From positions 576,001 through 640,000 of the forward strand of contig OY769902.1 in NCBI GenBank assembly GCA_963669175.1: a stretch of DNA of 64,000 nt, read 5' to 3'. The notes under the pieces are model-generated. The model was not told the origin of the DNA, ran no database searches, and saw nothing but the letters and a program-made list of their open reading frames with translations. Source of the stretch: a bacterium. GTDB taxonomy: Bacteria > Electryoneota > Electryoneia > Electryoneales > Electryoneaceae. This document shows positions 29,059 to 52,504 of this stretch, piece by piece (positions within the stretch are counted from its first letter, which is position 1; every line of letters begins with the position of its first letter). The position numbers and the translations under genes are program-made.

Positions 29059-29135
29059 GCGCCTGTAGCTCAACTGGATAGAGCATCTGACTACGGATCA
29101 GAAGGTTTGGGGTTCGAATCCCTACAGGCGTACCA
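29059..29135 (+). tRNA. tRNA-Arg (ACG)
   Basis: GCGCCTG acceptor stem, D-loop 'TAGCTCAACTGGATAGAGC', anticodon arm TCTGA-CT ACG GA-TCAGA, GGTTCGAATCC T-loop, 3' CCA. Confidence 0.97.
29089..29133 (+). repeat. attL core (45 bp)
   Basis: GACTACGGATCAGAAGGTTTGGGGTTCGAATCCCTACAGGCGTAC, identical to 52460-52504. Confidence 0.95.
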
Positions 29136-29142: not shown

Positions 29143-29180
29143 CAAGGGGTTAGGCGAGATGCCTGACCCCTTTGTTTTTT
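29143..29180 (+). terminator. Element-supplied terminator after the tRNA
   Basis: AAGGGGTTAGGC-gagat-GCCTGACCCCTT followed by TGTTTTTT. Confidence 0.75.
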
Positions 29181-29181
29181 G

Positions 29182-29206
29182 CGCGTACATCATATGTACA
29201 TCAAAC
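29182..29206 (+). repeat. Putative integrase arm-type site (left)
   Basis: CGCGTACATCATATGTACATCAAAC, identical to 52319-52343; contains GTACATCA twice. Confidence 0.75.
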
Positions 29207-29218: not shown

Positions 29219-30301
29219 TCAATCTGGCAAGGATTCCGTGTCGTCTGTAAGAACCGCATAAGACAGCTTGGAAATGGCCTGTTCGGCAACGGATGGCGCA
29301 AGGTGGGCGTAATACTTTTCTGTTACTGTCACTGAACTGTGACCAAGCAGTTGGGACACTGTCCAAATCGGAACCCCCTGCTGTACAAGGTTCGATGCGA
29401 ATGTGTGTCGCAATGTGTGTGTACTCGCCCAGGGCATACCGATGCTGGTCAGTACCTTGGAAATATGCTGTCCTACATAGTCTTGATCCCACGGTTTGTC
29501 TGGATACTTGGCAGAACAGAAGACAGGTTTACCTCGCCTTGGTTCCAGTGAACGGATAAGTTTGTCCAGAGCGGGGAATTGCTTGAAGCGTATCATCCGG
29601 TTCTTTTTCGACTTGGTTTTGCTTCCACGGAAGTGAATGACACCGTTCCGGAGATCAATGTCATCACCCATCAGGCTGACCGTTTCGCCACGACGAGCAC
29701 CGGTAAACAGCAAGAAGTCAACCATGGGCGCTAGTGGATCGCCACGAAAAGCTTCACGAAGCTTCTGAACCTGGTGAGATTCCAGAAAGCGCGGTGTTTC
29801 CTTTTCCGGTACTTTGAACTGCTGCATCTTGCGCATAGGACTTTCCACAAGGTAATCCAATTCAATGGCCTTGTTGAAGAAAGCACGAAGATGACGGAAT
29901 TCGATGTTCATGGATACTGGGGATAATGTTTTCAAACGTTCCTGCTGATAGGTCTCGACGCATGCGCGCGTTACGTCCGCAAGCTTTATATCACCTGTAA
30001 ATTCAACGAATCCGCTAATAATGTCACTGTCCATGTTTGCTGTCTTCACTGCTTTATAGTTTTGGCTGTATTCTATGTATTGCGTGAAGTACTCTGACAG
30101 TGAGATAGTGTTGTTATCCGGATCCTGGGACGGGTCGATAGCTTTGATTCCTTCTGCTTCAAACGCGTGAAGTTTTATCGCAGCTTGTCGTTTGTTGATC
30201 TTTCCAAGTGAACGTGTGCGGTTATGGCCAGTTTCGTCCCAGAATTGCAGGTACCAGATTTTCCGGCCATCCTTTCCAATACGGGTATAGATGCGTGCCA
30301 T
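29219..30301 (-). CDS. int: Tyrosine recombinase/integrase
   Basis: 'TGARRGE', 'KTK', 'HTLRHTFAS', 'LLGHSS..VTEKYYAH'; N-terminal arm-binding-like beta domain. Confidence 0.95.
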   Translation of the reverse strand: MARIYTRIGKDGRKIWYLQFWDETGHNRTRSLGKINKRQAAIKLHAFEAEGIKAIDPSQDPDNNTISLSEYFTQYIEYSQNYKAVKTANMDSDIISGFVEFTGDIKLADVTRACVETYQQERLKTLSPVSMNIEFRHLRAFFNKAIELDYLVESPMRKMQQFKVPEKETPRFLESHQVQKLREAFRGDPLAPMVDFLLFTGARRGETVSLMGDDIDLRNGVIHFRGSKTKSKKNRMIRFKQFPALDKLIRSLEPRRGKPVFCSAKYPDKPWDQDYVGQHISKVLTSIGMPWASTHTLRHTFASNLVQQGVPIWTVSQLLGHSSVTVTEKYYAHLAPSVAEQAISKLSYAVLTDDTESLPD

Positions 30302-30681: not shown

Positions 30682-31515
30682 TCACGAGCTCCTGGAGCAA
30701 TAGGAAACAAAACACTTCAAATGCTCATGGTTACTAACATCATTTAGCACGCAAGCACGATTGACAGGGCATGTTTGGCACTGCCATCCAGGATTAGGCG
30801 GGTATACTTCAGCCTGAATTGCATGCAGGATACCGGCTGCAACCTGGAAGAACTGGCTGTCTGATTCAGGGGTACGAATGGAGAACCGCTGGTCAAAATC
30901 CACTGTCTTTGTTTTTACCAGCGCGTCAATGCGGAGCAAGGCGTTTTCGTCGGCTGGGATGTCACCGCGTAACCGTGCGGCATAGGCATACGCCCATAAC
31001 TGAATGTTGTTGACCATATCAGTATCCGCGGGACGCTTCGACAGTACCTTGTGGTCAACAATACTGATGCGTCCCTGATCATCGGCTTCCAGCAGGTCAA
31101 ACCGCCCGACCAGGTCAACAGGCAGGATTAAACCTGTGTCCGGGTCAACCAGTGGAATCCTGAATTCATCTTCGACAGCCACAACGTTGCCTGGGTGGAT
31201 GGAGTCGTAGAAAACTGTCAGCAGTTCACATCCCTGGTGGATGATTTCATCGTGATCTTGAATGTCCAGAACACGGCCATCGGTTTCCTGCCGCCAGTCC
31301 TCCACAAACACCTCATGAAGGTCACCAAGCTGGATCAGGCGTCCCTCCTGCCATTCACGGTAGAAACATTCCAGGGCTGTATGAATTGCAGATCCAAGCA
31401 ACATTGCCGATGGATATACCTCCCAGGGAATGCGGTCGATATACTGCAGCTTGTACTTCTGCGGGCATTGCAGCCACGTCTTGATCTGCGATGCGGAAAG
31501 GTGGTCAAGTTCCAT
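30682..31515 (-). CDS. PD-(D/E)xK nuclease (RecB/AddB/Cas4-like, four-Cys Fe-S type)
   Basis: 'HLSASQI..W.QCP', 'GSAIH', 'GRFDL', 'IVDHK', 'QLWAY', 'CQTCP...AC'. Confidence 0.85.
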   Translation of the reverse strand: MELDHLSASQIKTWLQCPQKYKLQYIDRIPWEVYPSAMLLGSAIHTALECFYREWQEGRLIQLGDLHEVFVEDWRQETDGRVLDIQDHDEIIHQGCELLTVFYDSIHPGNVVAVEDEFRIPLVDPDTGLILPVDLVGRFDLLEADDQGRISIVDHKVLSKRPADTDMVNNIQLWAYAYAARLRGDIPADENALLRIDALVKTKTVDFDQRFSIRTPESDSQFFQVAAGILHAIQAEVYPPNPGWQCQTCPVNRACVLNDVSNHEHLKCFVSYCSRSS

Positions 31516-31526
31516 GTTCGCCCCTT

Positions 31527-31667
31527 TCAGCAACTGATAAAAAGCAGGACAATGATCACAAACAGCAGAACCGCGCCTAAAATGGAATTCCCCGCCGAGC
31601 GTTCACCTTCTTGTCCGGAAAGCCCAAGCAGAATAACGATCAGAGCAGCTATAATGAGCCAAATCAT
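31527..31667 (-). CDS. 46-aa two-helix membrane protein (absent from ORF track)
   Basis: Hand translation MIWLIIAALIVILLGLSGQEGERSAGNSILGAVLLFVIIVLLFISC; strong RBS (GGGAGG); fills the gap in the operon. Confidence 0.65.
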   Translation of the reverse strand: MIWLIIAALIVILLGLSGQEGERSAGNSILGAVLLFVIIVLLFISC

Positions 31668-31751: not shown

Positions 31752-32510
31752 TTATGCTGCCAGCAAGTGACGCGTGACCTGGCGGTTGACGTTGTCTGCG
31801 TGGTGGGTTTCCTGACGGGTCAGAACGTCGGTCAGGCCATTGTACAGACCCCAGACGTTGTCTTCCTCGATAGACATGAAAGCTTCCGCCTGAAGTGATT
31901 TCGGCAAGTTCAATGTGGTAAACGTGTTCTGGATGAAGGCACGGTCAACCGGGGTCTCGGTCATGCGCTTCATCGTGCGGGTGAGTGGTCCCAGGTTCTC
32001 CGCTACACTGTGCACACGATTGGAGGCAAGCTGTAGTTCTTCCACGAAGCCGTCATGGCCCCAGTGTTTGAACCGAAATCCGCCCAGCATGTAGTCGATC
32101 ATCAGACCGTTCTTACAGATCAGCCGCCGGGCGTTGAAGGACAGTCCGAACAGTGTGCTGGCATCGTACGAATTGATCACGTCCATAGTGACGTGTACCA
32201 GGTCACCGGGCCGGACTTCCATCTCCAGGTCGGGCAGCACCCACCGCTGACGATAGCGTTTGCCGTCGAAGATCATCCCGGCATCATCGAAGTACAGACC
32301 TGTACGGCCAAGAACGTCTAATGCAATGTTGCTGACATCCTCGTTGGTTACAAGCTGATATCCTGTAGAAACGACACCGACTTCCGTGTCGACACCGTTC
32401 TCCGCGATCATGACCGCGTTCCTGCTGGACGGGCTTCCATCCGGTGTGGTCAAAGGAACCAGCTTCACCGGGACGAAGGGATCACTGATATTTGTGTTGC
32501 GTCTGGGCAT
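31752..32510 (-). CDS. DUF932/DUF945 family protein (phage/plasmid/ICE-associated)
   Basis: 'GVVS.GYQLV.N', 'INSYDAS', 'RLICKNGL', 'WGLYNGLT'. Confidence 0.8.
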   Translation of the reverse strand: MPRRNTNISDPFVPVKLVPLTTPDGSPSSRNAVMIAENGVDTEVGVVSTGYQLVTNEDVSNIALDVLGRTGLYFDDAGMIFDGKRYRQRWVLPDLEMEVRPGDLVHVTMDVINSYDASTLFGLSFNARRLICKNGLMIDYMLGGFRFKHWGHDGFVEELQLASNRVHSVAENLGPLTRTMKRMTETPVDRAFIQNTFTTLNLPKSLQAEAFMSIEEDNVWGLYNGLTDVLTRQETHHADNVNRQVTRHLLAA

Positions 32511-32615
32511 GGTACTTCTCCTTTCTGAAGGAACAGAGTTCACCCGTGCATAGGGTTTGGTTTACCCTGCAAGGTCTATTGTGTTACGTGGTTCTTGCCG
32601 AAACTCGGTAGTGGA

Positions 32616-33317
32616 TCAGGCGGCGGTACCGATGATGGTAATCAGGTCTTCGGCCTGCTGTGGTGTAAGCTGGGAAATGTTGGCGTTGAAGTTGTCACGT
32701 GAGAGTTGGATAACACGCGCCTGTGGGATGCCAATGTCACGGGCCGCCTGGAATATCCGTGCAATCTGGTCGTTGCCAACACGATCCTTGCCTGCTCCAT
32801 GTAAACCACCGTTACCGTTCTGAGGATGTGCTGCATGGTTCTGGTGACCATTGCCACGCTGCTGATAACCTCCATTGCGCCGCTGACCGTTCTGGCCATG
32901 CGCGTTGCCGTTACCGTTTCCATTGCCGTTGTGACCGTTACCAGGCTGGTCTTGATACAAATACAACCCAATCCCGGCAAGGGTTGCGCACTTCTTCAGG
33001 GCATCGCTGGCTGCAGATTTCAGGTCATCCGCCAGGGAGATCATATCACCTGTGTCTTTATGCCTGGTAATCCGGCTGCCGCCAAACTGTTCGCGAACAG
33101 TATTGTTGATGGTAAGCCTGCAGCGGACAATGACTTCATCCTGCTCAAACTGGGTGTCTACAACATTGAATGACCAGCCGCCTTCCAGGGCTTCGTTCAG
33201 CCTGTGGATGACACTGTTGGCTTCCACGTACTCGAGCGTCTGCCCGAAGTTGCCACGCCGCGTTTTCACCTGTTCAGGGGCGAACGGCGCTGCGAGTTCA
33301 CTGATGGGGATGGACAT
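32616..33317 (-). CDS. Rad52/Rad22-family (Sak-like) single-strand annealing protein
   Basis: 'L.APF....VK.R.G..G..L.YVE...VI.RLNE...GWSF', 'LKSAASDALKKCA...GIGLYLY'; Asn/Gly-rich linker; AGGAGG RBS. Confidence 0.85.
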   Translation of the reverse strand: MSIPISELAAPFAPEQVKTRRGNFGQTLEYVEANSVIHRLNEALEGGWSFNVVDTQFEQDEVIVRCRLTINNTVREQFGGSRITRHKDTGDMISLADDLKSAASDALKKCATLAGIGLYLYQDQPGNGHNGNGNGNGNAHGQNGQRRNGGYQQRGNGHQNHAAHPQNGNGGLHGAGKDRVGNDQIARIFQAARDIGIPQARVIQLSRDNFNANISQLTPQQAEDLITIIGTAA

Positions 33318-33346
33318 GATGTACCTCCTGGTTTGTTGCCGGAAAA

Positions 33347-33393
33347 CACAACAAGATGTTGACAAGTTGTCGCGAAATCCGGCATATTCACAC
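33347..33393 (+). promoter_or_regulatory. sigma-70 promoter with palindromic operators for abiEi; probably leaderless transcript
   Basis: TTGACA (33359-64), 18 nt, CATATT (33383-88), ATG at 33394. Palindromes CAACA-AGA-TGTTG and GACAA-G-TTGTC overlap the -35. Confidence 0.55.
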
Positions 33394-34026
33394 ATGGATA
33401 CAACTTCACAAGAAAAGCGAGTTCTGGCGATGGTTGCCAAAAGGGGAATCCTTCGCGCACGCGAAGTGGTTGCAGAGGGTGTTGATGACAAGACCCTCCA
33501 TCGTATCCTTGCAAAGGGCCTCATCCAGCGTGTAGGTCGGGGGCTCTACATCTCGGCGGATGCAACACCATCTTCGAATGTTGCGCTGGCCGTAGTTGCG
33601 CGTCGTGTCGGGCACGGTGTTGTCTGCCTGCTAAGTGCGCTTTCATTCCACGGTATCACAACACAACTGCCGCGTGAGGTCTGGCTGGCTGTCAACTGGA
33701 AACCAACCATAGGCACAGATGAGTGGCCGCCGATTCGGACACTGCGTTTCTCCGGTGACGCTTTTACAGAGGGTGTTGAAGTGCACCAGGTTTACCCTGC
33801 GTCGGAAGAGAACGTAAGCAACAGTGTTGCTGTTCGCGTATACAGTCCTGCAAAGACAGTTGCTGACTGCTTCAAGTTCCGGGGAACGGTTGGGCTTGAT
33901 GTTGCCATTGAGGCGCTGCGCGATACACTTCAGCATCAGAAGGCAAGCCGAGATGAAATCTGGCAGTACGCGAAGCTCTGCCGCGTACACAATGTCATGC
34001 GCCCATACCTGGAGGCTACTGCATGA
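33394..34026 (+). CDS. abiEi: Type IV TA antitoxin AbiEi
   Basis: N-terminal wHTH 'RVGRGLY', 'VCLLSALSFHGITTQ.P', 'KTVADCFKFR..VGLDVA.EAL', 'VMRPYLE'. Confidence 0.88.
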   Translation: MDTTSQEKRVLAMVAKRGILRAREVVAEGVDDKTLHRILAKGLIQRVGRGLYISADATPSSNVALAVVARRVGHGVVCLLSALSFHGITTQLPREVWLAVNWKPTIGTDEWPPIRTLRFSGDAFTEGVEVHQVYPASEENVSNSVAVRVYSPAKTVADCFKFRGTVGLDVAIEALRDTLQHQKASRDEIWQYAKLCRVHNVMRPYLEATA

Positions 34027-34940
34027 TCACGTCTTCGCCTAAGAACGTGATCGCCTCTATCCGGCAACGACTGCTTAACCTCAGTCGTGAACGGGTAGAA
34101 AGTTTCGATCTTACGCTGAACCGCTATGCTTCCGAGCGGTTACTCTATCGTCTGAGCCTTTCAGATCACAGGGACAAGTTCATTCTTAAAGGAGCCCAGC
34201 TTTTTGCCATTTGGACTACAGAAATGTATCGCCCTACACGTGATATCGATTTACTCGGGTACGGTGAACCAACCCCAGAACACATGGAAGCTGTTTTCCG
34301 TACGCTGTGCGAGATGCCAGTTGAACATGATGATGGGCTTACGTTCGATGCCGACTCCATACAGGCGGCTGAGATTCGTGAGGACAACAGCTACGGTGGT
34401 ATTCGTGTCAGACTATCTACATGGCTCGGCGCTGCTTTAATACCTGTTCAGATTGATATTGGCTTCGGCGATATCCTGACACCTGGCCCACTTGAAACAG
34501 AATTTCCGGTGTTGCTGGGCCACCCAGCCCCTCAGATCAGGGTGTATCCCATTGAAACCGTCATAGCGGAGAAGGTCCAGGCCATGGTCAACCTTGGCAT
34601 AGCAAACAGTCGTATGAAGGACTTCTATGACGTGGCGCATATTGCAGGTCAGTTTACGTTCCAGGGGGCAACACTGGCAACGGCAGTTCAGGCAACATTC
34701 ACGAAGCGTGGCACTGTAATACCCTCAGGTCGCCCAGTCGCCCTGACTGCGGAGTTTGCTGAGGACAAGACGAAACAGCGCCAATGGAAAGCTTTCCTGC
34801 AACGGACGGGCTTGGATGCTTACAAGGACCTCACCAGCCTCATTGAATTCCTTTTTACGTTCACAGAGCCCGTGCTTGTTGCTGCTCGGCAAGGCGATTC
34901 GCTTCTAAAAACCTGGACGCCCGACAAAGGGTGGGAATAG
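34023..34940 (+). CDS. abiEii: Type IV TA toxin AbiEii (nucleotidyltransferase)
   Basis: 'ERLLYRLS', 'LKGA', 'RPTRDIDL', 'AEK...M......NSRMKDFYD'; ATGA overlap with abiEi. Confidence 0.9.
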   Translation: MITSSPKNVIASIRQRLLNLSRERVESFDLTLNRYASERLLYRLSLSDHRDKFILKGAQLFAIWTTEMYRPTRDIDLLGYGEPTPEHMEAVFRTLCEMPVEHDDGLTFDADSIQAAEIREDNSYGGIRVRLSTWLGAALIPVQIDIGFGDILTPGPLETEFPVLLGHPAPQIRVYPIETVIAEKVQAMVNLGIANSRMKDFYDVAHIAGQFTFQGATLATAVQATFTKRGTVIPSGRPVALTAEFAEDKTKQRQWKAFLQRTGLDAYKDLTSLIEFLFTFTEPVLVAARQGDSLLKTWTPDKGWE

Positions 34941-35337: not shown

Positions 35338-37713
35338 TCAGCAGGTACTGGCAGTCAGCCAGTCAGGGGATGTCGGGGCAAGGTAAACGGTCCGGCCACG
35401 AAGCTGAATACGAGCCTGGAAACTCAGGTTCTCTGGGACGGCACTGTACAGCAAATGATCCTGAGGAACCTGTCCCAGGTAAAGCGTGTCCAGCCAGAAG
35501 GCGGCATTGGTTCCGCCATTGGGTCTGGTCGTTACTTTGACAATGTTATCCACTTGCCGAATTTGCGCCAGAACGTCCTCAGGTTTGCTAATCCCCTGGT
35601 TGAGGCTGCCTACCAGCGGGATTACTGCTTCCTGTAGCCAGAGAGGCTGTGGCGTGGATTTCCGTTGGGGTACAATGATAGACCTTATAGTGGACTGCTG
35701 TTCCAGCATAAGGTCTACCGTTTCCTGACTGAAGCAATGGAAAGCAGCGCTGCCGGTTGTCTCGGCACGACTGCCATGCACTACATGCCACATCGCAACA
35801 GCCCAGGCACGGCGGTTGTCGGTCTTGCTTCGATCCCACGCTTCCAGGAAACGGATAGGACCAGCCAGGTCATCTTCACTCGGCTCCGGGTTCTGCTGCA
35901 GGATGGATGCAATCCACTTGTTGTAGGTCATCGTAACCGCCTTCGTCTCTTCGACCAGGTCCAAGGCAGCGGGTTCCATCCAGATCGGGACCAATCCTTT
36001 AAAGTAAACCAGTGAAGAGGTCTGCATGGTGTCCGACTGCCAACGGGCCACCACACGATTGTAGTTGTGGACCAGAGGGAAATCCCGCTCAATCATCTCT
36101 GCTTTCCTGACAAACAGGTCACGGTCTGTCTTTGCTGCAGCGATGTAATCAGGCATCTGCAAATCCGGATCTTCAAGCAATGCCCTGTCAGCTTGCGTGT
36201 TCCATTTCAAACGCTGGACTTCGCACTGCAAACCTGCAGACAAGGCAGCCACTTTATCCAGCCTGCCAGCATGTACAGCGGCGGCGATCCCATAGGTCAG
36301 GGAACCAATCCTGTTGCCAAGTGCCTTGACAGCGACAAAAGGCAATGCCGCAAGGGGATCTTTCAGGCGCGTCTTTGGGGGTGTGTCCTTACGCTGGTAG
36401 TCCGGATACCATTCTGCCGAAGCAACAGCCTCAACCACACTATCCTGTGTATTAATAATATAATAGTCTCCATCAAAGTCACCATCAAGGATACTGGCAA
36501 GATCGTTGTTCAGGTAAACTGTGCCCTCGAGGGGATTGGCTACTGCTTCCGGTTCGTTCCAGACAGCCTGCAGACTCCAGGGATCACGAATTGGGTACCT
36601 TGACAAAATCACCGGGCCAGCAGGGAGATCTACAGCACAGATGACTCCATCAGGCAAATCTGCATAAGCACCCATACAGCCGGTCAATTCGAGCCCACCA
36701 CCAGTGGCAAGTCGGACGTATTCTCGCCTCATCAACTGCACAAGCTGACGATGCAGCCAGGGATGTTCCGGCCCCACACCGGCCTGCAGGAAAGCTTCTG
36801 CTTTGGTGCGAACATCGTTGAACTCATCCTCACGTGACACCAACCCAAGGAAACTCAGGGCGGCCTTACGATCAGTCAGAGCATCACGGATAACATCCAG
36901 CTTCTGTTCGGCCATCGGCCAGACTGCATCCAATACTGCCTGGTCAAACCACTCGGCAATACTGAACGAACTGCTGTAAGGGCGTGTAGTAGCCACATCC
37001 CTGACACCAAACCAGCAGGTCCACGGCTGGTTCTGTGGTGGTGTCCCTGCACCTTTAATCATGCTGTCCGGCAACAGGAAGTTCACCCCGTCATGCAAAT
37101 CGGCGGGCAACAGTGTACCCTTGGCAAGCCATCGTTGATCAGGACTGTCACTGACCAAACGCACCTGTAGCTGTCGTGCAGCCAACCCCAGCTTTTCAAC
37201 CAACGCCTTGGATATGAATCCCATGCCATCGCCAGTGCCAGCCTCACCTTCTGCAACAACATGGCCCTTGATACCATCCAGGCGGTGGATGCCGTGATGA
37301 CACCCGCTGAACAAGGTGCCGAGGTAGCTCAATGCTTCCTGGCTGCTGCGAAAGAAGGGGTGAATCAGCTTGCGGACCTCATCGGTCGCCAGCCAGAAGT
37401 GGCCTTTCTTGATTGAACTGGACCCACCGAGGATACGGAATCGTTTCCCGTCATGGTCCAGCCCTCCCCCCAGCAGGGCCTCACAGGCAGCGTACCAGCG
37501 GTCATCAGGGCCGTCCTCTGGATACTTCAGCTGGATCCGGACCAGGTTGAAAGGATCGATCATCCTTTCTATGATCGTATCCCTCAAGGGAATAGACGGC
37601 GCATGCTTCAACCGCGCTCCATTGTAGGTGTAACACGGAATCATCCTCTGATAAACCTCCTTTGCAAGTTGACGTACCTGTTCTTCTGTCTGCGCCGACA
37701 CTTCGATCTTCAT
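35338..37713 (-). CDS. Single-subunit two-barrel RNA polymerase, eukaryotic RdRP / YonO-like (~791 aa)
   Basis: Ordered motifs 'GKRFRILGGSSS.KKGHFW', 'GTLFS', 'GDGMGFIS', 'QVR...KGTL', 'DSMIKG', 'VILSRYP', catalytic 'DGDFDGD', 'IGSLT'; AGGAGG RBS before the ATG at 37713. Confidence 0.82.
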   Translation of the reverse strand: MKIEVSAQTEEQVRQLAKEVYQRMIPCYTYNGARLKHAPSIPLRDTIIERMIDPFNLVRIQLKYPEDGPDDRWYAACEALLGGGLDHDGKRFRILGGSSSIKKGHFWLATDEVRKLIHPFFRSSQEALSYLGTLFSGCHHGIHRLDGIKGHVVAEGEAGTGDGMGFISKALVEKLGLAARQLQVRLVSDSPDQRWLAKGTLLPADLHDGVNFLLPDSMIKGAGTPPQNQPWTCWFGVRDVATTRPYSSSFSIAEWFDQAVLDAVWPMAEQKLDVIRDALTDRKAALSFLGLVSREDEFNDVRTKAEAFLQAGVGPEHPWLHRQLVQLMRREYVRLATGGGLELTGCMGAYADLPDGVICAVDLPAGPVILSRYPIRDPWSLQAVWNEPEAVANPLEGTVYLNNDLASILDGDFDGDYYIINTQDSVVEAVASAEWYPDYQRKDTPPKTRLKDPLAALPFVAVKALGNRIGSLTYGIAAAVHAGRLDKVAALSAGLQCEVQRLKWNTQADRALLEDPDLQMPDYIAAAKTDRDLFVRKAEMIERDFPLVHNYNRVVARWQSDTMQTSSLVYFKGLVPIWMEPAALDLVEETKAVTMTYNKWIASILQQNPEPSEDDLAGPIRFLEAWDRSKTDNRRAWAVAMWHVVHGSRAETTGSAAFHCFSQETVDLMLEQQSTIRSIIVPQRKSTPQPLWLQEAVIPLVGSLNQGISKPEDVLAQIRQVDNIVKVTTRPNGGTNAAFWLDTLYLGQVPQDHLLYSAVPENLSFQARIQLRGRTVYLAPTSPDWLTASTC

Positions 37714-38010
37714 GATGAACCTCCTGTTGGTTGGTACTTCCATGCATGGAAAAGCCCACATCCCAGTCAAAGCTAAGGCTTTGTTTTTTATGGGGTGGGC
37801 GTGAAAACAGTTGTAAATATAACACTTATTCTCAATTGGTGACCACGAAATTTTGCTGATGTCCTCTCTATATGGATTTTGGTTAAAGCGATATATAGCT
37901 GGGTATACAATTCTGTGTACAAATCTTCTAGTGCGTGTGGAGTATATAGGTATGAGGGCTCAGAAGGGAGCACCTGATCAAACCTGACGAAACAGAAAGG
38001 GCAGGACACA

Positions 38011-38586
38011 ATGCATAAAGAATGTTCGTGCAACCGAATTATCAGATTCATGGTTGCCAGCAAATACGAGTTCAAGGATGGGGCTGTGCGCAAGCCGAAC
38101 GGAGAAAAGATGTATGTCCGGAAATCGGATAACCCCAAACGATACCATCACGTGCAGATAACATGCGAACACAAACGGTACACCATCCAACACTCTCGCC
38201 TTGTTTGTTGGCTGGCTAATATTGAACCACCGACGGAATACCACTTTGTGCATCACCGCAATGGGAACAGGCACGACGACAGTCCCGAAAACCTGGAGTG
38301 GATTAATCGGGCTGAAAATGCCAGGCTGGTTTCACCTGAAACCGCAGCTCAGCGTGTAAAAAACCTGCGTTCCCGTGCGGAAAAGGCAAGGCGGGCAAAG
38401 AGGAAGGCGCCAGTTTACTTACATGATACCCAGAAGGTGGAAATATGCCACAAGTACGAAAGCGGCCTATACACCATTAGAGAACTAGCTGAAGAGTACG
38501 GTCCCTCTTCAGGAACCATTAGCAGGACCGTTCGCAAGGGCTTTTCTTGTGAGGAAAAAGCCCTTGATCTCAAACAGGCTGCGTAA
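38011..38586 (+). CDS. HNH endonuclease with C-terminal helix-turn-helix
   Basis: 'HSRLVC...VHHRNGNRHDD..ENLEWI.R.EN' (HNH_3 type) and 'TIRELAEEYG.SSGTISRTVR'. Confidence 0.8.
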   Translation: MHKECSCNRIIRFMVASKYEFKDGAVRKPNGEKMYVRKSDNPKRYHHVQITCEHKRYTIQHSRLVCWLANIEPPTEYHFVHHRNGNRHDDSPENLEWINRAENARLVSPETAAQRVKNLRSRAEKARRAKRKAPVYLHDTQKVEICHKYESGLYTIRELAEEYGPSSGTISRTVRKGFSCEEKALDLKQAA

Positions 38587-38721: not shown

Positions 38722-40449
38722 ATGCCAGAAATCCCTGGATATCCTGGTGGTAAAAAACCTAAAAGAGCTGGGAAAGCTGTGCGTCTCGACGCATCAGGTA
38801 TTACAGAAGCACAGCTTACACTATATAAATCGTGCTTCACGATGAATCGACGCTATGGGTTACACGTCGTTCGAGATACGTACCCAGGAGCAAAATGGAC
38901 CTCTGTAAATTGGCCGTTTCAGGAACGTGATATTTTGATGCATCTGACTCAGGAACACATCATAGGCTTGCGTTGGTCTAACTATGTAAAATGCGTGGCT
39001 ATCGATATTGATTGTCATTTCAGAACACAAGACTCATTTTTTGTATACCATCCAGGGAATGAAAGAATGGAAAGCATCATAAAAGCATTCGGAGGAGCTA
39101 AACCGCTTATAGTGCAATCATCAGATTCACAAGGTCTGCATTTATATTACTTTCTCGAGAAAGAAGTGCATATTCGCAACGTGGAATTCAGTATTGATCG
39201 TCTTTTCAATAACGCAGGAATTCAAATTCGTTCTGGTTGGATCGAACATGCTACAGGTACCACGAATAGGGCATTAAGACTGCCATTAGGCGAAGGAAGT
39301 CATATCTTACAGTATGAAGATCTTACCCCGGTAGGAAGATCTCTTGGACAGCAGCTTCAGTACCTTGAACACAGGCTTGAGGATTTTACCTACAGGTTTG
39401 AGGACCTTGTGAACACAATGCCGCGCAATTCAGTGTATACTGACTTGGATGATGATAGTGTGAACGGTAATAGTGGACAGACCCATAACAGTAGCCAGGC
39501 GGTTGTAGCACTCACGGATGCAGAAGGGAGGGTTTACCCAAGGGCGGATGATTCCTGTGAGTCAAGGCGGAAATGCGACATCTCGCATGATGATGAAGCC
39601 ATCACTGACAAGCCGCCCCTCTCTCGAGGCCGGAAATACTTCGCGCCTATCAAACTTAATAGAACAGATTATGTTTCTAAAAAAGAACACTCCTCAACTG
39701 CACCCGTTCAGGAACAATTCCAGACAGCTATGTACGCCCTCAAGAATGGCTTGGAAACAGAAGGAACCCGCCAGCATATTACACTGTGCATAGTGACGTA
39801 CACAATGCTCAAACTGGGATTTTCGAAACTGCAAGCCAAAAAGTTTATCAAGTCATGGATCCGTGACAAACACAATGGCAAGTCAAAGGATTGGAATGCC
39901 GGGCCGCGTAAACAGCAGGAAATCTTTGAGGACATTGAACGCCTTGTTGACAAGTGGAAACAGAGAGAAAGCACCGAGGTTTCTTCACTGACTTTAACTG
40001 CTGACGAAATACACAACATTCATAAACTTGACGCCACATTACAGGAAAAAGTGTGGATTGCAGAGTTTTACTCGAAAGTCAAACCTGCGATAAGACAAAA
40101 CCCGTCCGAGCCGCTTGAACTCACCCACTTTTGGTTCCAACGTATCTGGGAGTGCACAGCCGGGACAGCAACGAAAAGAATCAATACACTTATACGATTG
40201 GGAATTTTGGTGCTTGAAACAAACTACTCCGATAAAGCACATGGACGAATCTGGAAAGTGAACAACGTAACCACCGAGATCGGCCTTTACACAACATTCT
40301 GTGAAGGGCTGGATATTCTGTTTTCACGCGAGGAGTTGAAGCAGACATATTCGAAAGCCCAGCTAAGGCGACTCCGGGAACAGTTCACTTCTCCCCATGC
40401 AACAAAAACTGAACAAACTGACCCATTGTGGCAGGACAAAGCCGCCTAG
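38722..40449 (+). CDS. Archaeo-eukaryotic primase (AEP) superfamily primase-polymerase / replication protein
   Basis: Motif I 'AIDID', motif II 'SSDSQGLHLY', 'LRLPLG'; PriCT-like 'GTRQ' helical domain; C-terminal wHTH-like region. Confidence 0.75.
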   Translation: MPEIPGYPGGKKPKRAGKAVRLDASGITEAQLTLYKSCFTMNRRYGLHVVRDTYPGAKWTSVNWPFQERDILMHLTQEHIIGLRWSNYVKCVAIDIDCHFRTQDSFFVYHPGNERMESIIKAFGGAKPLIVQSSDSQGLHLYYFLEKEVHIRNVEFSIDRLFNNAGIQIRSGWIEHATGTTNRALRLPLGEGSHILQYEDLTPVGRSLGQQLQYLEHRLEDFTYRFEDLVNTMPRNSVYTDLDDDSVNGNSGQTHNSSQAVVALTDAEGRVYPRADDSCESRRKCDISHDDEAITDKPPLSRGRKYFAPIKLNRTDYVSKKEHSSTAPVQEQFQTAMYALKNGLETEGTRQHITLCIVTYTMLKLGFSKLQAKKFIKSWIRDKHNGKSKDWNAGPRKQQEIFEDIERLVDKWKQRESTEVSSLTLTADEIHNIHKLDATLQEKVWIAEFYSKVKPAIRQNPSEPLELTHFWFQRIWECTAGTATKRINTLIRLGILVLETNYSDKAHGRIWKVNNVTTEIGLYTTFCEGLDILFSREELKQTYSKAQLRRLREQFTSPHATKTEQTDPLWQDKAA

Positions 40450-40532: not shown

Positions 40533-40873
40533 TATGGGTGGTAAGATGACAGCCAACCCTCACAATTAACCACCGTATTCCGTTTTAGAGAGGCGGTCGT
40601 TACCATGGAGCTCTTACCCACTGGGGTCAACCTGATCGTGGCTTAGAAGCGGATTCCGTGCACGGGTTCTTCACCCAGTTCGGGTAAGTTAGACAAATAC
40701 CGTTTTGGTCCACGATTGTTTGAATACCACTGTTTGGAGCAATACACATCCATATTGCAATTCATTGAAGGAAGAGGCCGATGGAAAGTATGGGGTAGCT
40801 CCGGTTTTATCCTCGAATGCTATAATATTGCCGCCAAATATTAATTATTATGCTTTATGACTTTGGAGGAAGA

Positions 40874-43570
40874 ATGTTTATAGCTAAATGGGATGGCGAT
40901 GACACCCATGATCTGATCGCTCACGTGTTAGATGTAGCAGCAGTGGTGAAACTGCTGATACACGACCATCTGACAAAGAATAGCCGTGCAACCCTTTTAG
41001 AATCGTTCCCCGGGTATTCAGTGGAACCTGTTATTCAGTTAGTGTGTTTCCTTGCGGGACTGCATGATATTGGCAAGGGAACTCCCTGGTTCCAAGCGAG
41101 ACATCAACCAACATTACAAGCCCTCGTCACTATGGGATATGCTTTTCGCGGTTCTAATCAACCTCACGCGTTCCTATCCCAATACCTCATTCCCAGCATT
41201 CTCCTTCAAATTTGGCCAGAGTGGAGAGATTCCCAAAAATGGTTAAATCGTGTGGGCAAGCTATTAGGTGGTCACCATGGTCTATTCTGCGCATCATTTA
41301 CACCCCCGCGCCGAGACCTGGGGGATGGCAAATGGGATCATACTCGGTTGGAAATAGTTCGAACAATCGCTCAAGTCCTACAGATTGATTCTTCAGTACA
41401 ACCAACAATTGAGTATACATCTGATCGTTTCAATGTGACCTTCGCGGGTCTCGTAACCATAGCAGACTGGATCGGAAGCCAACAGGACTTTTTTCCGTTT
41501 GTCCCCATAATTGATGATCCTTCCTCGTATTGGCGGACAAGCCAAGAGCAAGCAAGACATGCACTGGATAAGATGGGCTGGCGAACGCACCGTCCAGTAG
41601 CTGTCTCTAATCAGCTTGATAGGTATTTTCCGGATGCTAAGGATCCCGTATGGCGCCCGGTTCAGGAGATCGTTAAACGGGCATTGCCTGATAAACCTGC
41701 AGCCTCCCTGATCATTGTCGAGGATAGCACCGGAGGCGGAAAAACAGAGGCATCATGGTTGGCCGCAGAAACAGATTGGCATCGACTGGAACAAGCCGGT
41801 CTATATATAGGGATGCCAACAATGGCTACCAGTAATGCTATGCATAAACGTTTGCAGGAATACCTCGCCTCAAGCTACCCAGACGAAGTGGTCAATCTGC
41901 AACTTGCGCATAGCCTTGCAACTCTCGATAATCCATCAGCGCTCACATCTGTAGGTGATCCTGAAGCCAATAATAATCACACCCACGGTACAACAACCGC
42001 AGAATCCTGGTTTCTTCCAAAAAAGCGTACTCTTTTCGCGCCGTTCGGGGTGGGAACTGTTGACCAAGCACTTATGGCTGTGCTGCAAGTCAAACATTTC
42101 TACCTGCGTCTATTCGCACTTGCTGGGACAACGGTCATTTTTGATGAGATCCACGCGTATGACGTGTACATGTCCACACTTTTTGATTGCTTACTCCGCT
42201 GGCTCGGAGAACTGGGCGTTACAGTGGTGCTTCTATCGGCAACTTTGCCCTCAGCACGTCGCAAACAACTCATAGAGGCATATTGTGGTCAGGTTGACTT
42301 AAAGGTTCCAGATACTACCGACGGGGAATTCCCCAGGGTTCATGTTGTCAACTCCGATGGAATCTATTTAAACACACCCGGTAAAGCCGCAGTACCCTCC
42401 ACACCGAATAGATCTGTGTCAGTACAGGTTGTGTACGAGGAAGATGAGGCAATACTTGAACGCCTACACAACTTTCTGCAAGATGGGGGCTGCGGGGTCT
42501 GGATCTGCAATACCGTCGCGGACGCGCAGAAACGATATCGTGACTGGCAAGAACGATATCCGGATTGGCTAGAGGAAGAAATGATCCTCTTTCATGCCCG
42601 TTTTCCCTTTGGCCGCAGAGCTGAAATCGAAGAGCAGATTCAGAATCTGTTTGGCAAGAACGACACGATACGACCAACTAGGACTATAGTTTTCGCGACT
42701 CAGGTAATTGAGCAGAGCCTGGATGTTGACTTCGATGTGATGGTGTCGGACCTGGGACCTATCGACTTACTGATTCAGCGTATCGGCCGCCTCCAGCGAC
42801 ACAGGCATCTTCAACGCCCGGAACGCTTCAGTGACAATCCTGTTTGTTTTGTAGCCTCGCCGCTATTGGGCAAAGATGGTGTTCCGCTGTGGGGAAACCA
42901 AGCGAAGATTTACGATGAATTCATTTTGCTGAAAACGTGGCGGGTTCTCGGATTGCTTGACGGACACCCGGTCAGTCTTCCCACGGAATCTGACCACCTC
43001 ATCAACTTTGTATATGACACAATGATTCCAAGCAATCTGCCAGACCGATTGGACCAGGTGTTTATTGCAGCAAAGGCAAAATCAGACAAGGCTGCCGAGG
43101 ACGATAGAACAAAGGCGGAAACAATAGTCATCAAGGAACCACGACCTGTTGGCAGAGAAAGCATCATGGATCAGGCAAGTAAGAATCTCGATGAGGATGA
43201 TCCTTTAATACACGAGTCCTTACGTGCAGCAACAAGGCTGGGGCCACCCTCTGTAACCGTGATATGTGTCCACCAGGTAAAACAAGGTATAGCGTTAGAT
43301 GCAAAAGGTTCAGACCTGTTTGACCTGAACACGGATATCAATCATAAGCTTGTACAGGATTTAATGCGTCAGTCACTCAATATTTCATGCTACAATCCAG
43401 CCAGGTTAACTGCAGTATTCGAGGCTTCGGTTATGCCAGTGGGTTGGAAAAGACACGCGGCATTACGATACACAGTATTGTTACCTCTGGTCGATGGCCA
43501 GATTCAGTTGGGAAAGGAGGTGTTTCGGCTGAACGATGATGAAGGATTGGTAATCACGAGGCAATTCTAA
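40874..43570 (+). CDS. cas3: CRISPR-associated HD nuclease/helicase Cas3
   Basis: 'H..DVAAV', 'LHDIGK', 'HHG', 'IADWIGS', 'TGGGKTEA', 'DEIH', 'SAT', 'QVIEQSLD.DFD', 'QR.GRLQRH'. Confidence 0.96.
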   Translation: MFIAKWDGDDTHDLIAHVLDVAAVVKLLIHDHLTKNSRATLLESFPGYSVEPVIQLVCFLAGLHDIGKGTPWFQARHQPTLQALVTMGYAFRGSNQPHAFLSQYLIPSILLQIWPEWRDSQKWLNRVGKLLGGHHGLFCASFTPPRRDLGDGKWDHTRLEIVRTIAQVLQIDSSVQPTIEYTSDRFNVTFAGLVTIADWIGSQQDFFPFVPIIDDPSSYWRTSQEQARHALDKMGWRTHRPVAVSNQLDRYFPDAKDPVWRPVQEIVKRALPDKPAASLIIVEDSTGGGKTEASWLAAETDWHRLEQAGLYIGMPTMATSNAMHKRLQEYLASSYPDEVVNLQLAHSLATLDNPSALTSVGDPEANNNHTHGTTTAESWFLPKKRTLFAPFGVGTVDQALMAVLQVKHFYLRLFALAGTTVIFDEIHAYDVYMSTLFDCLLRWLGELGVTVVLLSATLPSARRKQLIEAYCGQVDLKVPDTTDGEFPRVHVVNSDGIYLNTPGKAAVPSTPNRSVSVQVVYEEDEAILERLHNFLQDGGCGVWICNTVADAQKRYRDWQERYPDWLEEEMILFHARFPFGRRAEIEEQIQNLFGKNDTIRPTRTIVFATQVIEQSLDVDFDVMVSDLGPIDLLIQRIGRLQRHRHLQRPERFSDNPVCFVASPLLGKDGVPLWGNQAKIYDEFILLKTWRVLGLLDGHPVSLPTESDHLINFVYDTMIPSNLPDRLDQVFIAAKAKSDKAAEDDRTKAETIVIKEPRPVGRESIMDQASKNLDEDDPLIHESLRAATRLGPPSVTVICVHQVKQGIALDAKGSDLFDLNTDINHKLVQDLMRQSLNISCYNPARLTAVFEASVMPVGWKRHAALRYTVLLPLVDGQIQLGKEVFRLNDDEGLVITRQF

Positions 43571-43589
43571 CAAACCGAAAGGTATATTC

Positions 43590-45173
43590 ATGGCACCATT
43601 CAACCTTGTAACAGAAGCCTGGATTCCGTGTTTGAAGCCCGATTGGATCGTCGTGGAAGCTGGGCTGCGGGATGTACTTCTGAGCGCTCATGAGTTCCGC
43701 GAGATGCAGGATACATCTCCCTTGGTCACAGCATCGTTGCATCGTCTCCTGATAGCTCTGGTTGCGTCCATGTACTCACCCAAGACGCTTGATGACTGGT
43801 TGGCGCTCTGGGAGAAAAAGCAATTCTATGCTGAAACAGTGAATACCTATTTCGCAGATCGGATGGATCGATTCGATCTGTTCCATCCCGATTACCCTTT
43901 CTACCAGGTAGCGAAATTCAAGGTCAACAAACCATCTCCGATCAGCCAGCTAGCCATGGAAGAAGTGTCAGGGAACAACCCAGTGCTTTTCGACCATCGT
44001 AGGGACGATGCGCCTGATCCAATTCCACCCGAAGTCGCTGCACGGCGACTTGTCGCGCTACAGAACTTTGCGGTTGGATTTGGACAGAGCGCAAAACCGG
44101 AGATAGATGGAAAGAATGTAGTGACCAAACGTATCGACACAGGTGATGGTCCACTCGCACGCGGATCGACCCTGATTGTTTATGGTGGCAACCTATTCGA
44201 AACTCTGATACTGAACACGCTTCCGGCTTCCCTACGGGAAGAAACCCTTCTCGAGAATGGAACAGCAGTGTGGGACCGAATCAAGCCAGTTCGGCCAGGC
44301 GAACCACGACACCCTGACGGATACTTGGACCAACTTACCTGGCCTACTCGCTGGGCTCGTCTGCTTCCAGATGGTGTTTCCTGCAAAACTCTATCGTCAG
44401 TATATCTTGCGCAAGGCTCACGGATGTCAGGTGACGTTATGGATCCTATGAAGCGGTACAAGCGGGATGAAAAGCAGGGTTGGTTATCCCAATCGATGAG
44501 AGCAGACCGCGCACTCTGGCGGGATAGTGCTGCCTGGTTGGAATTCAGCGATACGAACCGTCCTCCAGCGACACTAAGAATGATCCGGAACTTGGTGGAG
44601 GAATCAGATTTAGACACCTCAAAGACATTGGATCTTCGCGTCTTTGGTTTCGGAACCAAACCAGGGAAAGCTGCCGCTATCCAGTTCTGGCGTGCAGATG
44701 CAATCTCGGTCCCAATGGAATTTCTTGAGGATGAGGATCTGGTGGCACGACTTCGTCAATGCTTGGAGTGGGCCGAGCGTGGTGCAAAGACTCTTCGTAG
44801 CGCCATCTGGAAATTCGGTGATGTTTACCTCCCCGATATGGGGAAAGATCAGAAGACCGCCAAAATTGAAGATTTAATTCAAAACCTGGCTCCCATTAAT
44901 CGTTACTGGCCAGACATGGAGCTTCATTTTCGCGCCCTGTTGTTCGCCTTGATTGATGATCCGGACCAGGCAGAAACCGACTGGATGGATCAGATCGAAA
45001 ACACCGCAAGAAGTGCTCTCGAACATACCCTTCGAAAACTACCCATCAAGGGCCGAGACCAACAGGCAGCTGTTCATTCACGGGGCGTATTGAACAGCCT
45101 GTTACGCAGAATTCGCAATGATGCAGGGTTATTGCCTGTACCAACAGAGGAGGATACCTATGACAGTAAATGA
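43590..45173 (+). CDS. casA: Type I-E Cascade large subunit Cas8e/Cse1
   Basis: 'FNLV.EAWIP', 'RFDLFHP..PFYQ', 'G.NLFETL.LN', 'LTWP.R..RL'. Confidence 0.93.
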   Translation: MAPFNLVTEAWIPCLKPDWIVVEAGLRDVLLSAHEFREMQDTSPLVTASLHRLLIALVASMYSPKTLDDWLALWEKKQFYAETVNTYFADRMDRFDLFHPDYPFYQVAKFKVNKPSPISQLAMEEVSGNNPVLFDHRRDDAPDPIPPEVAARRLVALQNFAVGFGQSAKPEIDGKNVVTKRIDTGDGPLARGSTLIVYGGNLFETLILNTLPASLREETLLENGTAVWDRIKPVRPGEPRHPDGYLDQLTWPTRWARLLPDGVSCKTLSSVYLAQGSRMSGDVMDPMKRYKRDEKQGWLSQSMRADRALWRDSAAWLEFSDTNRPPATLRMIRNLVEESDLDTSKTLDLRVFGFGTKPGKAAAIQFWRADAISVPMEFLEDEDLVARLRQCLEWAERGAKTLRSAIWKFGDVYLPDMGKDQKTAKIEDLIQNLAPINRYWPDMELHFRALLFALIDDPDQAETDWMDQIENTARSALEHTLRKLPIKGRDQQAAVHSRGVLNSLLRRIRNDAGLLPVPTEEDTYDSK

Positions 45174-45798
45174 CGAAAAACGTGAGGTTGCGTTCGTCCG
45201 CAAACTGGTTGACTTATGGGAAGACCGGGGAGCAATGGCGAATCTGCGTCGAGGTCTTCGGGTTGAAAACCCGAAAGCAGACGCCCGCATGGTGTCAACG
45301 ATTGCACCGATGCTGTATGGAGTGTCCGCATCTGACGAAGATCGCTTCTATTGGATTGCATCTCTGTTCGCTACAGTTCATACCGGTTCGAATAAACCGG
45401 TCTGGATGAAGATGCATCTCGATGAACCGGCTGAAATCTGGAAACGCCATACAATTGGGGAGGCCTTCCATAAGATGAGTGCGGCTGAACGGCGAGAACG
45501 TAACCTCAAGCCGGACAAAAAAACCAGCACAGATAGCCGCTTTGAAAAACTGATGAACAGCAACTGGGAAGATCTGCCCAACAGGCTGCGCCACGCTGTC
45601 CGTCAACTTGCATCACGCCATGGCTCGGATCGTGAACGGGTGGACATTGACTGGGTCCGCCTGCTGCACGACATCGCACCGCGCAGGTTCAATAGTCCAG
45701 AACGATACATCCAGCAGGCTTGGGCGAATAGCTACTGGCGTACCACCACGAAGAAGGAAGAAGAAAACAAAACAACTGAAAAGACTGAAAACGCATAA
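45160..45798 (+). CDS. casB: Type I-E small subunit Cas11/Cse2
   Basis: 'A.LRRG', 'RF..L', 'LRHAV', 'IDW..L..D', 'WA..YW'. Confidence 0.88.
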   Translation: MTVNDEKREVAFVRKLVDLWEDRGAMANLRRGLRVENPKADARMVSTIAPMLYGVSASDEDRFYWIASLFATVHTGSNKPVWMKMHLDEPAEIWKRHTIGEAFHKMSAAERRERNLKPDKKTSTDSRFEKLMNSNWEDLPNRLRHAVRQLASRHGSDRERVDIDWVRLLHDIAPRRFNSPERYIQQAWANSYWRTTTKKEEENKTTEKTENA

Positions 45799-45815
45799 CA
45801 CAAGGAGAAAGACCC

Positions 45816-46967
45816 ATGTTTATCGAATTGCACATGATCCAGAACATTCCCCCGGCCAACCTGAACCGGGATGACAGTGGCGCTCCCAAGGATTGTGAGT
45901 TCGGCGGCCATCGTCGTGCACGGATCTCATCCCAGAGCCTCAAGCGTGCGATCAGGTTTCATGATGATATGCGAAATTTGGAAGGTGCATCACCGTCCCA
46001 GCGTACAAAGCGAATTGTGGAACAGGTCGTTGATCGGCTTGTCAACGGCGGTCATGATAAGGAAAAAGCGGAATCCATCGTCAAGATCGTTATGGACGCC
46101 GCAGGGGTTTCGACAGATGACAAGGGGAAATCCAGCATCCTGTTCTTTATCAATGACGCCGCAATGGACTGCATTGCTCAACTCATCCATGACCACTTTG
46201 AAGACTTGGACCAGAAGAAAAAGAAGGACATTCCCGGCGATGTCGTCAACGAGATCGTGGACATTTTCCTGGAAGAGATCCACTCCCCGGATCTCGCCCT
46301 GTTCGGTAGGATGGTGGCTGTCGATCCCAAATCACCTCTCGGTGCAAAGAACTTGAAGATCAACGCTGCCTGCCAGGTCGCACACGCCATAAGCACCAAT
46401 CGTGTCAGCATGGATGAAGACTTCTTCACCGCTGTGGATGATTTGAATCCTGATGAAGAGACTGGCGCTGGCATGATGGGCGTGATCGATTTCAATAGCT
46501 CGTGCTTTTACAGATACAGTGTCATCGATACCCGCGCCCTGGAAGCGAATCTGGGCCATGACCAGAAACTCGCTGAGAACACAGTTCACGCTTTCATCAA
46601 AGCGTCTGTCGAGTCGCTGCCGAGCGGCAAGCAGAACAGCTTCGCCGCACATACTCGTCCGGATTTCGTGCTGGCCATCGTCCGTAAGGGGCAACCACTC
46701 TCCTTGGCTAATTCGTTCGCCAACCCGGTTCGTCCCTGGCAGAACGAAGGCATGGTGGAGGCTAGCGTGAAAGCAATGTATGAACACCTCAAGAAGCTCA
46801 CCGAAACGTATGGTGACGGCGACCTGATCGAGCATTTCTGGATCTATACAAAAGATCTGTCCGAAGAAGACAAAAAGAGGTGGGAAGAAGTGTTTGGTTT
46901 CAAGGACGAAAGCCTCGAAACCCTCATTGGTGACACTATTGGGCAAGCATTTCCCGAGGAGGATTAA
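45816..46967 (+). CDS. cas7: Cas7 (Cse4)
   Basis: 'NLNRDD.GAPK...FGG..RARISSQSLKRA.R', 'ALFGRM', 'QVAHAIST', 'PSGKQNSFA'. Confidence 0.96.
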   Translation: MFIELHMIQNIPPANLNRDDSGAPKDCEFGGHRRARISSQSLKRAIRFHDDMRNLEGASPSQRTKRIVEQVVDRLVNGGHDKEKAESIVKIVMDAAGVSTDDKGKSSILFFINDAAMDCIAQLIHDHFEDLDQKKKKDIPGDVVNEIVDIFLEEIHSPDLALFGRMVAVDPKSPLGAKNLKINAACQVAHAISTNRVSMDEDFFTAVDDLNPDEETGAGMMGVIDFNSSCFYRYSVIDTRALEANLGHDQKLAENTVHAFIKASVESLPSGKQNSFAAHTRPDFVLAIVRKGQPLSLANSFANPVRPWQNEGMVEASVKAMYEHLKKLTETYGDGDLIEHFWIYTKDLSEEDKKRWEEVFGFKDESLETLIGDTIGQAFPEED

Positions 46968-46970
46968 ACC

Positions 46971-48304: not shown

Positions 48305-48551
48305 GTTGGAAGGAATTAGTTTTCAATTGACAGGGTACCTGGGCAACTGAGTATCCACCATCCAGTTCTTTGACAAGCGAACCTATGACAGTCAGATATG
48401 GAAAATGGGGGCTGGCTCGATTTGTTTTGTTCAATGGTGATTTCAGCTTGCTGAAGTTTCGGAACAAATGGTGTCTGTCCCGCATTTTCCGGTCATGAGA
48501 ACGATAACTTCCAGGAGAAGTATGAGTTCCTGATATCACCGGAGGTATATC

Positions 48552-52459: not shown

Positions 52460-52504
52460 GACTACGGATCAGAAGGTTTGGGGTTCGAATCCCTACAGGC
52501 GTAC
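52460..52504 (+). repeat. attR core (45-bp duplicated tRNA-Arg 3' part)
   Basis: Identical to 29089-29133. Confidence 0.95.

Follow-up and report, generated by a model that had tools for sequence, protein, structure and literature searches.

The stretch of DNA analysed here (the window: 64,000 nucleotides, positions 576,001 to 640,000 of contig OY769902.1, assembly GCA_963669175.1, from a bacterium of the phylum Electryoneota) contains at 35338..37713, on the reverse strand, a gene of 791 codons plus stop (protein P0001) whose product is, judging by its predicted structure, very probably a two-barrel RNA polymerase that is catalytically intact, consists of a single chain and belongs to the RdRP superfamily (RdRP, RNA-dependent RNA polymerase). 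The gene lies within an island inserted at a tRNA gene, and we hold with good confidence that it is a backbone gene shared by related islands which integrate at tRNA genes and whose anti-phage cargo is exchangeable. As to its role, we tentatively favour, with somewhat less than even confidence, a DNA-templated RNA polymerase that would prime the replication of the island.

The extent of the gene was assessed from its start region and its homologues. When counted from a TTG, the open reading frame (ORF) listing gives an open frame at 35338..37770 (-) of 810 aa, while the ATG at 37713 yields 791 aa and is preceded, 7 nt upstream, by AGGAGG; since the alignment furthermore shows that the close homologues all begin at the same M-K/R-I as the 791-aa protein, the coordinates and the length proposed by the first-pass annotation (which had been made from the letters of the window) are right. 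The same annotation had listed seven motifs in the canonical order of the superfamily, and a regular-expression scan of P0001 found all of them in that order: GKRFRILGGSSS (residues 89-100), GTLFSG (132-137), DGMGFIS (162-168), QVR...AKG (183-199), SMIK (217-220), SRYPIR (371-376) and DGDFDGD (410-416), the last corresponding to the metal-binding loop of barrel A, with codons at 36466..36486 (-) as computed from the residue numbers. Across the family, D162, Q183, R185, K198, G199, T200 and K220, as well as R372, P374, R376, G411, D412, D414, G415 and D416, are invariant in 22/22 aligned sequences, at identities down to 25%. These homologues were recovered as 22 clusters (query included, E<=1e-3) among 8000 scored candidates from a collection of 5.8 billion proteins, and a search of 1.84 billion proteins yielded 168 homologue representatives at E<=1e-3, 89 at 1e-10 and 28 at 1e-30. 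All source names of the homologues read 'hypothetical protein', as had been anticipated for an automated annotation, and the genome itself holds a single copy of the gene.

By sequence alone, the case for the polymerase assignment is weak. The only Pfam family matched by P0001 is RdRP (PF05183), at 16.6 bits and E 0.0034, which is below the gathering cut-off of 23.8 bits; 14 of the 22 family members match it at E<=0.01 (best 2.7e-10), and several distant homologues exceed the cut-off. As the query falls below the threshold while its relatives match, we filed P0001 in the superfamily and not as a Pfam-threshold member. In a comparison of the family profile with QDE-1, '...sRYPvRd...GDfDGD...' aligns with the catalytic '...aRSPahf...GDYDGD...' at E 0.14. 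No PDB sequence was matched at E<=1 by phmmer with the single polymerase sequence, and no NCBIfam family was matched by the polymerase.

It is the predicted fold that settles the assignment. The AlphaFold2 model built from the alignment has a mean predicted local distance difference test score (pLDDT) of 88 and a predicted template modelling score of 0.77, is poor only at residues 676-695, and displays the strand patterns of the two barrels at residues 142-246 and 343-421, with the DxDGD loop sitting between a helix (403-408) and a strand (417-421). Its best match is maize RDR2 (7w82: Foldseek E 1.7e-22, VIA-align Z 26.7, 595 residues aligned, root-mean-square deviation 4.0, model 23-674 on chain 372-1111), accompanied by Arabidopsis RDR2 (Foldseek about 1e-18, Z 18.8-20.7) and the QDE-1 entries (Foldseek E 4.5e-18 to 7.9e-16, Z 18.9-19.7), then by the Thermus-phage polymerases 8f72 and 8f5m (Foldseek 9e-12 and 3e-11, Z 24.5 and 23.7, about 515 residues aligned). 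Weaker matches are given by the phage proteins P23-45 gp96 (Foldseek 3e-5, Z 14) and crAss-like gp66 (Foldseek 5e-4, absent from the VIA-align list), and by the largest subunits of cellular RNA polymerases (Rpb1-type: Foldseek E 0.002-0.03, Z about 11, model 336-554); if residues 343-421 are a beta-prime/Rpb1-type barrel followed by a bridge-helix region, the Rpb1-type match would be expected to be confined to 336-554. Moreover, the top BFVD matches (best E 1.9e-16) include viral 'RNA dependent RNA polymerase' proteins and a P23-45 protein. The assignment to the two double-psi-barrel family, which had been made from the motifs, is thus upheld by the model.

The polymerase core spans approximately residues 23-680. 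Eight residues are described as common to all two-barrel polymerases (PMC2919709), i.e. the three Asp of DxDxD, the R and P before this loop, and two Lys and one Asp of the other barrel, with the equivalents Rpb1 R446 and P448 given in the same source for the R and P, and Rpb2 K979, K987 and D837 and QDE-1 D709 as equivalents for the other barrel. Five of the eight are matched directly (D412, D414, D416, R372 and P374), and K198, K220 and D162 are, by their order and invariance in the sequence, the candidate catalytic residues of barrel B. The whole-core matches and the secondary structure imply that the metal loop would lie where the two barrels meet. The C-terminal residues 695-791 (about 35341-35631 in the window) form a confidently modelled, beta-rich domain, which is conserved in the family and lies outside all polymerase structure matches.

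Compared with known systems, the enzyme shares with the eukaryotic RdRPs (RDR2: 7w82, 7rqs, 7eu1; Neurospora/Thielavia QDE-1: 2j7n, 5fsw, 7y7p-t; PF05183) the single chain with two double-psi barrels, the order of the motifs (including the DxDGD loop) and a core that superposes together with the helical region after barrel A, whereas the sequence identity is only 12-17%. It differs from them in its length (791 aa against about 1000-1400 aa), in lacking the eukaryotic N-terminal regions and possessing a C-terminal beta domain of its own (~695-791), and in being a bacterial protein, encoded on a mobile island and devoid of RNA interference (RNAi) partners. The Thermus-phage non-virion polymerases (8f72 'Phage P32 gp64', 8f5m 'P74 gp62') have the same two-barrel single-chain fold and are likewise element-encoded, but they transcribe phage genes from specific promoters (as described for P23-45 gp64 in PMC10770324), while the island has no virion genes; the virion polymerases P23-45 gp96 (8h2m) and crAss-like phi14:2 gp66 (6vr4) match the island enzyme much more weakly.

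YonO, of the Bacillus prophage SPbeta, transcribes phage late genes. It is also a single-chain, element-encoded member of the superfamily (PMC2919709, PMC7824862) and is the functional precedent for a DNA-dependent enzyme; it is a protein of about 100 kDa and belongs to a Firmicute prophage. The first-pass annotation had placed the protein beside YonO, and of this claim the superfamily stands by fold, while sequence searches showed no specific link: tblastn of the polymerase against 50,697 phage records gave no match at E<=0.01, and no PHROGs family was matched at E<=1. A pattern scan of IMG/VR likewise contained no polymerase relative among its 329 pattern matches. The RdRP-like polymerases of 'selfish elements' of Iyer and Aravind, as reported in PMC3417536, share the mobile-element setting, have restriction-endonuclease-fold/DNase neighbours, RNase H links in cyanobacterial forms and RNase H fusions, and were proposed to act as primases.

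The distribution of the gene is narrow and patchy. Within the phylum it was found in 6/79 species genomes (the one analysed here included), as eight copies in one family only: five of the 15 other genomes of this family carry it, against 0/63 in the remaining eight families. The nearest copy (76%) belongs to a different genus, and the copy in the same genus is at 69%. Outside the phylum, metagenome contigs contributed at least 19 further marine loci (31-38% identity, among the 592 pattern matches listed), and 21 cyanobacterial plasmids carry distant homologues, all annotated as hypothetical, with neighbours that include a Gp157 family protein, VapE and HU. A pattern scan of genome contigs with the single polymerase protein retrieved 18 pattern matches and no relatives.

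In order to separate backbone from cargo, ORFs were clustered over 27 loci (the window being designated WIN), many of them on short contigs, so that absences mean little. A recombinase recurs as a tyrosine integrase (WIN, L013, L023) or a serine resolvase (four marine loci), a DUF932 protein recurs in three plus three loci, Rad52 is found in WIN (by Pfam), L010, L012 and L013, a PD-(D/E)XK nuclease in WIN and L013, and an HNH gene in WIN and L011; further recurring genes encode small HTH_17 proteins, RadC (six loci), ArdC and Mu Gam/Gp157. Two of the related loci adjoin tRNA genes as well (tRNA-Ser in L011, tRNA-Val in L016). The cargo beside the polymerase gene is always defence and differs at each phylum locus examined: a type IIG restriction-modification (RM) system, DarT-DarG and a DruE-like helicase in L010; PDC-S06 and a type I RM in L011; a type I RM in L012; HmaB/HmaC-like genes in L013; DrmD, DrmMI/IIG and a DruE-like helicase in L014; and AbiE and CRISPR-Cas in the window. 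The slot beside the polymerase gene thus behaves as a cargo hotspot and, since the backbone is constant while the cargo varies, we place the polymerase in the backbone, at the edge of the cargo slot.

The island itself measures 23.4 kb and is bounded by a perfect 45-nt direct repeat of the 3' end of tRNA-Arg. The tRNA-Arg (ACG) gene lies at 29059..29135 (+), its 3' 45 nt (29089-29133) being the left attachment site (attL), and the repeat copy that forms the right one (attR, 52460..52504, +) is 100% identical to it; a hairpin and a T-run found 3' of the attR copy are probably the original terminator of the tRNA gene. Just inside attL is the gene of a tyrosine integrase (29219..30301, -; PF00589, E 9e-23), the sole recombinase found in the island, and this arrangement of tRNA gene, integrase and perfect repeat bears out the earlier description of the polymerase as element-encoded. 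A 33-nt repeat (29174..29206, +, and 52311-52343; 91% identical), which contains the palindrome GTACATCATATGTAC, is present just inside both island ends; as its two copies would flank the attachment core in the circular form, they are candidate arm-type integrase sites. A search for an empty site in relatives found the left flank in 15/16 family genomes and the right flank in 2/16 and on other contigs, the flanks being non-syntenic. The contigs of two sequencing runs examined over 33000-52999, which could not span both island ends, represented only the assembled organism itself, with identical low-depth fragments in the second run; tRNA and CRISPR-like fragments from other organisms also turned up, and none of this informed on excision or on differences between strains.

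Beyond the integrase gene, and on the same strand, the island encodes a PD-(D/E)XK nuclease (Cas4/RecB-like; 30682..31533, -; PF12705, E 3e-32), a DUF932 protein that is a backbone gene common to related elements (31752..32543, -) and a Rad52/22-type single-strand annealing protein (32616..33524, -; PF04098, E 3e-17), in which the match begins at residue 76 and whose gene probably starts further in than 33524. On the other side of the polymerase gene, and divergent from it, lies an HNH_3 homing-endonuclease-like gene (38011..38586, +), which is the same neighbour as in L011, and next comes the gene of a 575-aa protein (P0169, cluster c8; 38722..40449, +) that we consider as a partner of the polymerase.

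The N-terminal part of P0169 resembles primases of the archaeo-eukaryotic (AEP) type, and its C-terminal part is predicted to be helical, including a winged helix. In the ESM Atlas, 23 of the 30 matches of the N-terminal part were AEP-TOTE primase clusters (0.96), and two relatives of P0169 match PF22548 weakly (E 0.0049 and 0.011). The AlphaFold2 model of the protein is of poor quality, at pLDDT 52 (about 50-60 over the N-terminal domain), and for residues 420-545 VIA returned winged-helix matches (ORC2 C-terminus, a plasmid initiator, DnaD N-terminus) at Z<=7, below the trusted level. The family is small (just three other clusters in the collection of 5.8 billion proteins) and follows the polymerase closely: it occurs in 4/79 phylum genomes, always sharing a contig with a copy of the polymerase gene and never without the polymerase, adjoining the polymerase gene in three genomes and lying ~4.8 kb away in L013. 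In 4 of the 19 marine loci listed, a gene resembling DNA polymerase A (PF00476; E 2.2e-12, above the cut-off) is the first or second gene downstream of the polymerase gene, in three of the four with a small helix-turn-helix or unassigned ORF in between. Furthermore, L011 has an RNase H gene after the partner, two genes from the polymerase, a distant homologue of 1900 aa (P0113) has an RNase H/RVT_3 domain fused at its N-terminus, and the other backbone genes all pertain to DNA metabolism (Rad52, PD-(D/E)XK, Gam, RadC, ArdC and DUF932).

Because the polymerase is tied to AEP-like and PolA-like neighbours, to RNase H and to recombination genes, because it has neither a conserved transcription partner nor a late-gene block, and because the same role has been proposed for such enzymes in PMC3417536, priming of island replication is the function that we favour. 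The polymerase would synthesise RNA on DNA of the island itself, the template being probably single-stranded or origin DNA once the island has been excised or transferred, and this RNA would serve, along with the neighbouring protein of DNA-polymerase type, to prime replication of the island DNA (that protein being AEP primase-polymerase-like in the window, family-A DNA polymerase-like in some marine relatives), after which RNase H and the recombination genes would process the products. A DNA template would be in keeping with the DNA-dependent activity reported for QDE-1 (PMC9508822). Several observations weigh against such a role. Four of the eight phylum polymerase copies have no AEP-like gene nearby, and a genome with two copies (G027, 91% complete) is entirely devoid of one. 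The commonest marine neighbour (c2, 640-670 aa), which follows the polymerase in eight of the marine loci listed (L017, L019, L020, L021, L022, L024, L034 and L035), has no Pfam or PDB match and could be placed in no family: hhalign gave E 0.13 against the PolA-like c10 and E 0.044 (probability 1%) against c8, among named clusters of the ESM Atlas the closest is PF00476, at no more than 0.81, and the apparent PolA-like motifs noted in it by eye were confirmed by no tool. A search for iterons and inverted repeats in 29130-40900 returned nothing convincing, in particular no origin-like iterons.

Two further points count against priming and, by the same token, in favour of an island-specific transcriptase, i.e. 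an enzyme that would recognise its own promoters independently of the host polymerase, be insensitive to rifampicin and act, for example, after excision or upon entry into a new cell. The studied relatives from viruses of prokaryotes, namely YonO (PMC5467207) and P23-45 gp64 and gp96 (PMC10770324), are all described in these sources as DNA-dependent transcriptases, and with the AEP-like partner as a candidate primase there is no obvious need for another enzyme that makes primers. In structure, moreover, the phage non-virion polymerases match nearly as well as RDR2 does (Z 24.5 and 23.7 vs 26.7). We regard transcription of the island as a serious possibility without thinking it probable, for the backbone of the island comprises about ten genes, distributed over both strands, and lacks any virion or late-gene block for which a polymerase of its own would be required (Pfam scans detected no capsid, tail, portal or terminase families among the island ORFs), and no conserved transcription-factor partner accompanies the gene. 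No repeated intergenic motif stands out in the island, sigma-70-like sites are not depleted (9 found vs 6.4 +/- 2.6 in shuffles), and the phage collections that were searched (PHROGs, IMG/VR and the 50,697 phage records) provided no match at the protein sequence level. A promoter and terminator scan around the polymerase gene gave results no different from shuffles.

The resemblance to eukaryotic enzymes raises the question of whether RNA could be the template, the enzyme copying RNA into antisense or double-stranded RNA for defence, counter-defence or regulation of the island. The best structural match is indeed an RNAi polymerase (residues 23-674 vs RDR2 372-1111), Pfam RdRP is the only family matched, and in the relatives the gene always stands beside defence cargo; yet the cargo changes from one locus to the next and the polymerase remains with the backbone, which argues that the enzyme is not tied to one defence system, and the CRISPR-Cas companion is restricted to this genome (1/8 phylum loci). 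PADLOC, in addition, has no model that matches the polymerase or its 575-aa partner, the annotated loci showed no neighbour of the Dicer, Argonaute or RNase III type, and the RNase H links point to RNA-DNA hybrids. We consequently judge an RNA-templated function improbable, and give little credence to its evolutionary extension, according to which this island-borne relative of RDR2 and QDE-1 would represent a prokaryotic precursor, in function, to the RNAi amplifier, copying transcripts into antisense or double-stranded RNA. It is very unlikely that the protein is an inactive relic, or a structural or DNA-binding protein hitch-hiking on the island, given that the catalytic residues are all invariant down to 25% identity, that the frame is intact and free of internal stops in 8/8 phylum copies and in the full-length marine copies, and that a strong ribosome-binding site precedes the start. 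The remaining probability falls to roles beyond priming, transcription, RNA copying and a relic.

The rest of the island is taken up by cargo. An AbiEi-AbiEii toxin-antitoxin (abortive-infection) pair is located at 33052..34940 (+), with the true start of AbiEi probably near 33400, and at 40850..49753 (+) a type I-E cas operon comprises cas3, cse1, cse2, cas7, cas5, cas6e, cas1 and a probable cas2 (49472..49753). The CRISPR array follows at 49764..52180 (+) and consists of 40 repeats with 39 spacers (31-34 nt). Since only some 10 nt lie between the stop of the probable cas2 and the first repeat, there is hardly any space for a leader. As this complete type I-E system lies within the attachment bounds, it may move with the island. 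Its spacers had no matches (E<=0.01), neither in the related loci nor elsewhere in the window. We considered, and dropped, the idea that the polymerase is functionally linked to the CRISPR-Cas of the island, cas genes being present in 0/7 related phylum loci. The last repeat of the array, which is degenerate, is duplicated ~117 nt downstream along with the stretch that follows it (52164-52194, 52281-52311), and between the two copies there is a run of AATGAGG heptamers with its inverted complement (52188-52228). A search of the island with Rfam retrieved tRNA only.

Elsewhere in the window, a 93-nt tandem repeat (2.4 copies, 96% identical) occupies 54412-54636, between C69 peptidase and CbiA/ferredoxin genes, and the part at 1-15400 encodes several large secreted proteins with the C-terminal sorting domains of the type IX secretion system (Por_Secre_tail). 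Taken with some homologues that carry the name Calditrichaeota in their sources, these proteins may point to a host of the FCB group, possibly Calditrichota.

Eukaryotic RNAi polymerases are thought to have descended from bacterial phage or selfish-element polymerases, and on the prokaryotic side we know of a few phage transcriptases that have been studied and of nothing else; to our knowledge, the branch described here has never been studied. Already in print (PMC2919709, PMC7824862, PMC3417536, PMC5303251) are the superfamily, its members in bacteria and phages, and their presence in 'novel selfish elements' that have DNase neighbours and links to RNase H. The type of enzyme is accordingly known from bacterial mobile elements, and this branch of it is rare. 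What is specific here is the near-complete structural likeness to plant RDR2 predicted for a bacterial protein of 791 aa, the AEP-like partner, and the setting in islands with defence cargo, one of them with a full CRISPR-Cas. Over its whole core, the modelled island enzyme appears to resemble plant RDR2 in structure no less closely than it does any of the characterised phage enzymes. The islands matter too as carriers of exchangeable defence systems, as typified here by the complete CRISPR-Cas inside the attachment boundaries. If priming is indeed the function, a mobile element would have its DNA replication primed by an RNA polymerase of the two-barrel type alongside a partner of AEP or PolA type, which would be an undescribed mechanism. 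Moreover, the small size of the protein (791 aa), its high-confidence model, the non-phage island and the simple gene set make it a convenient candidate for study, with which one may ask whether the non-phage branch of these polymerases serves for priming, for transcription or for copying RNA, and what the ancestral template preference was.

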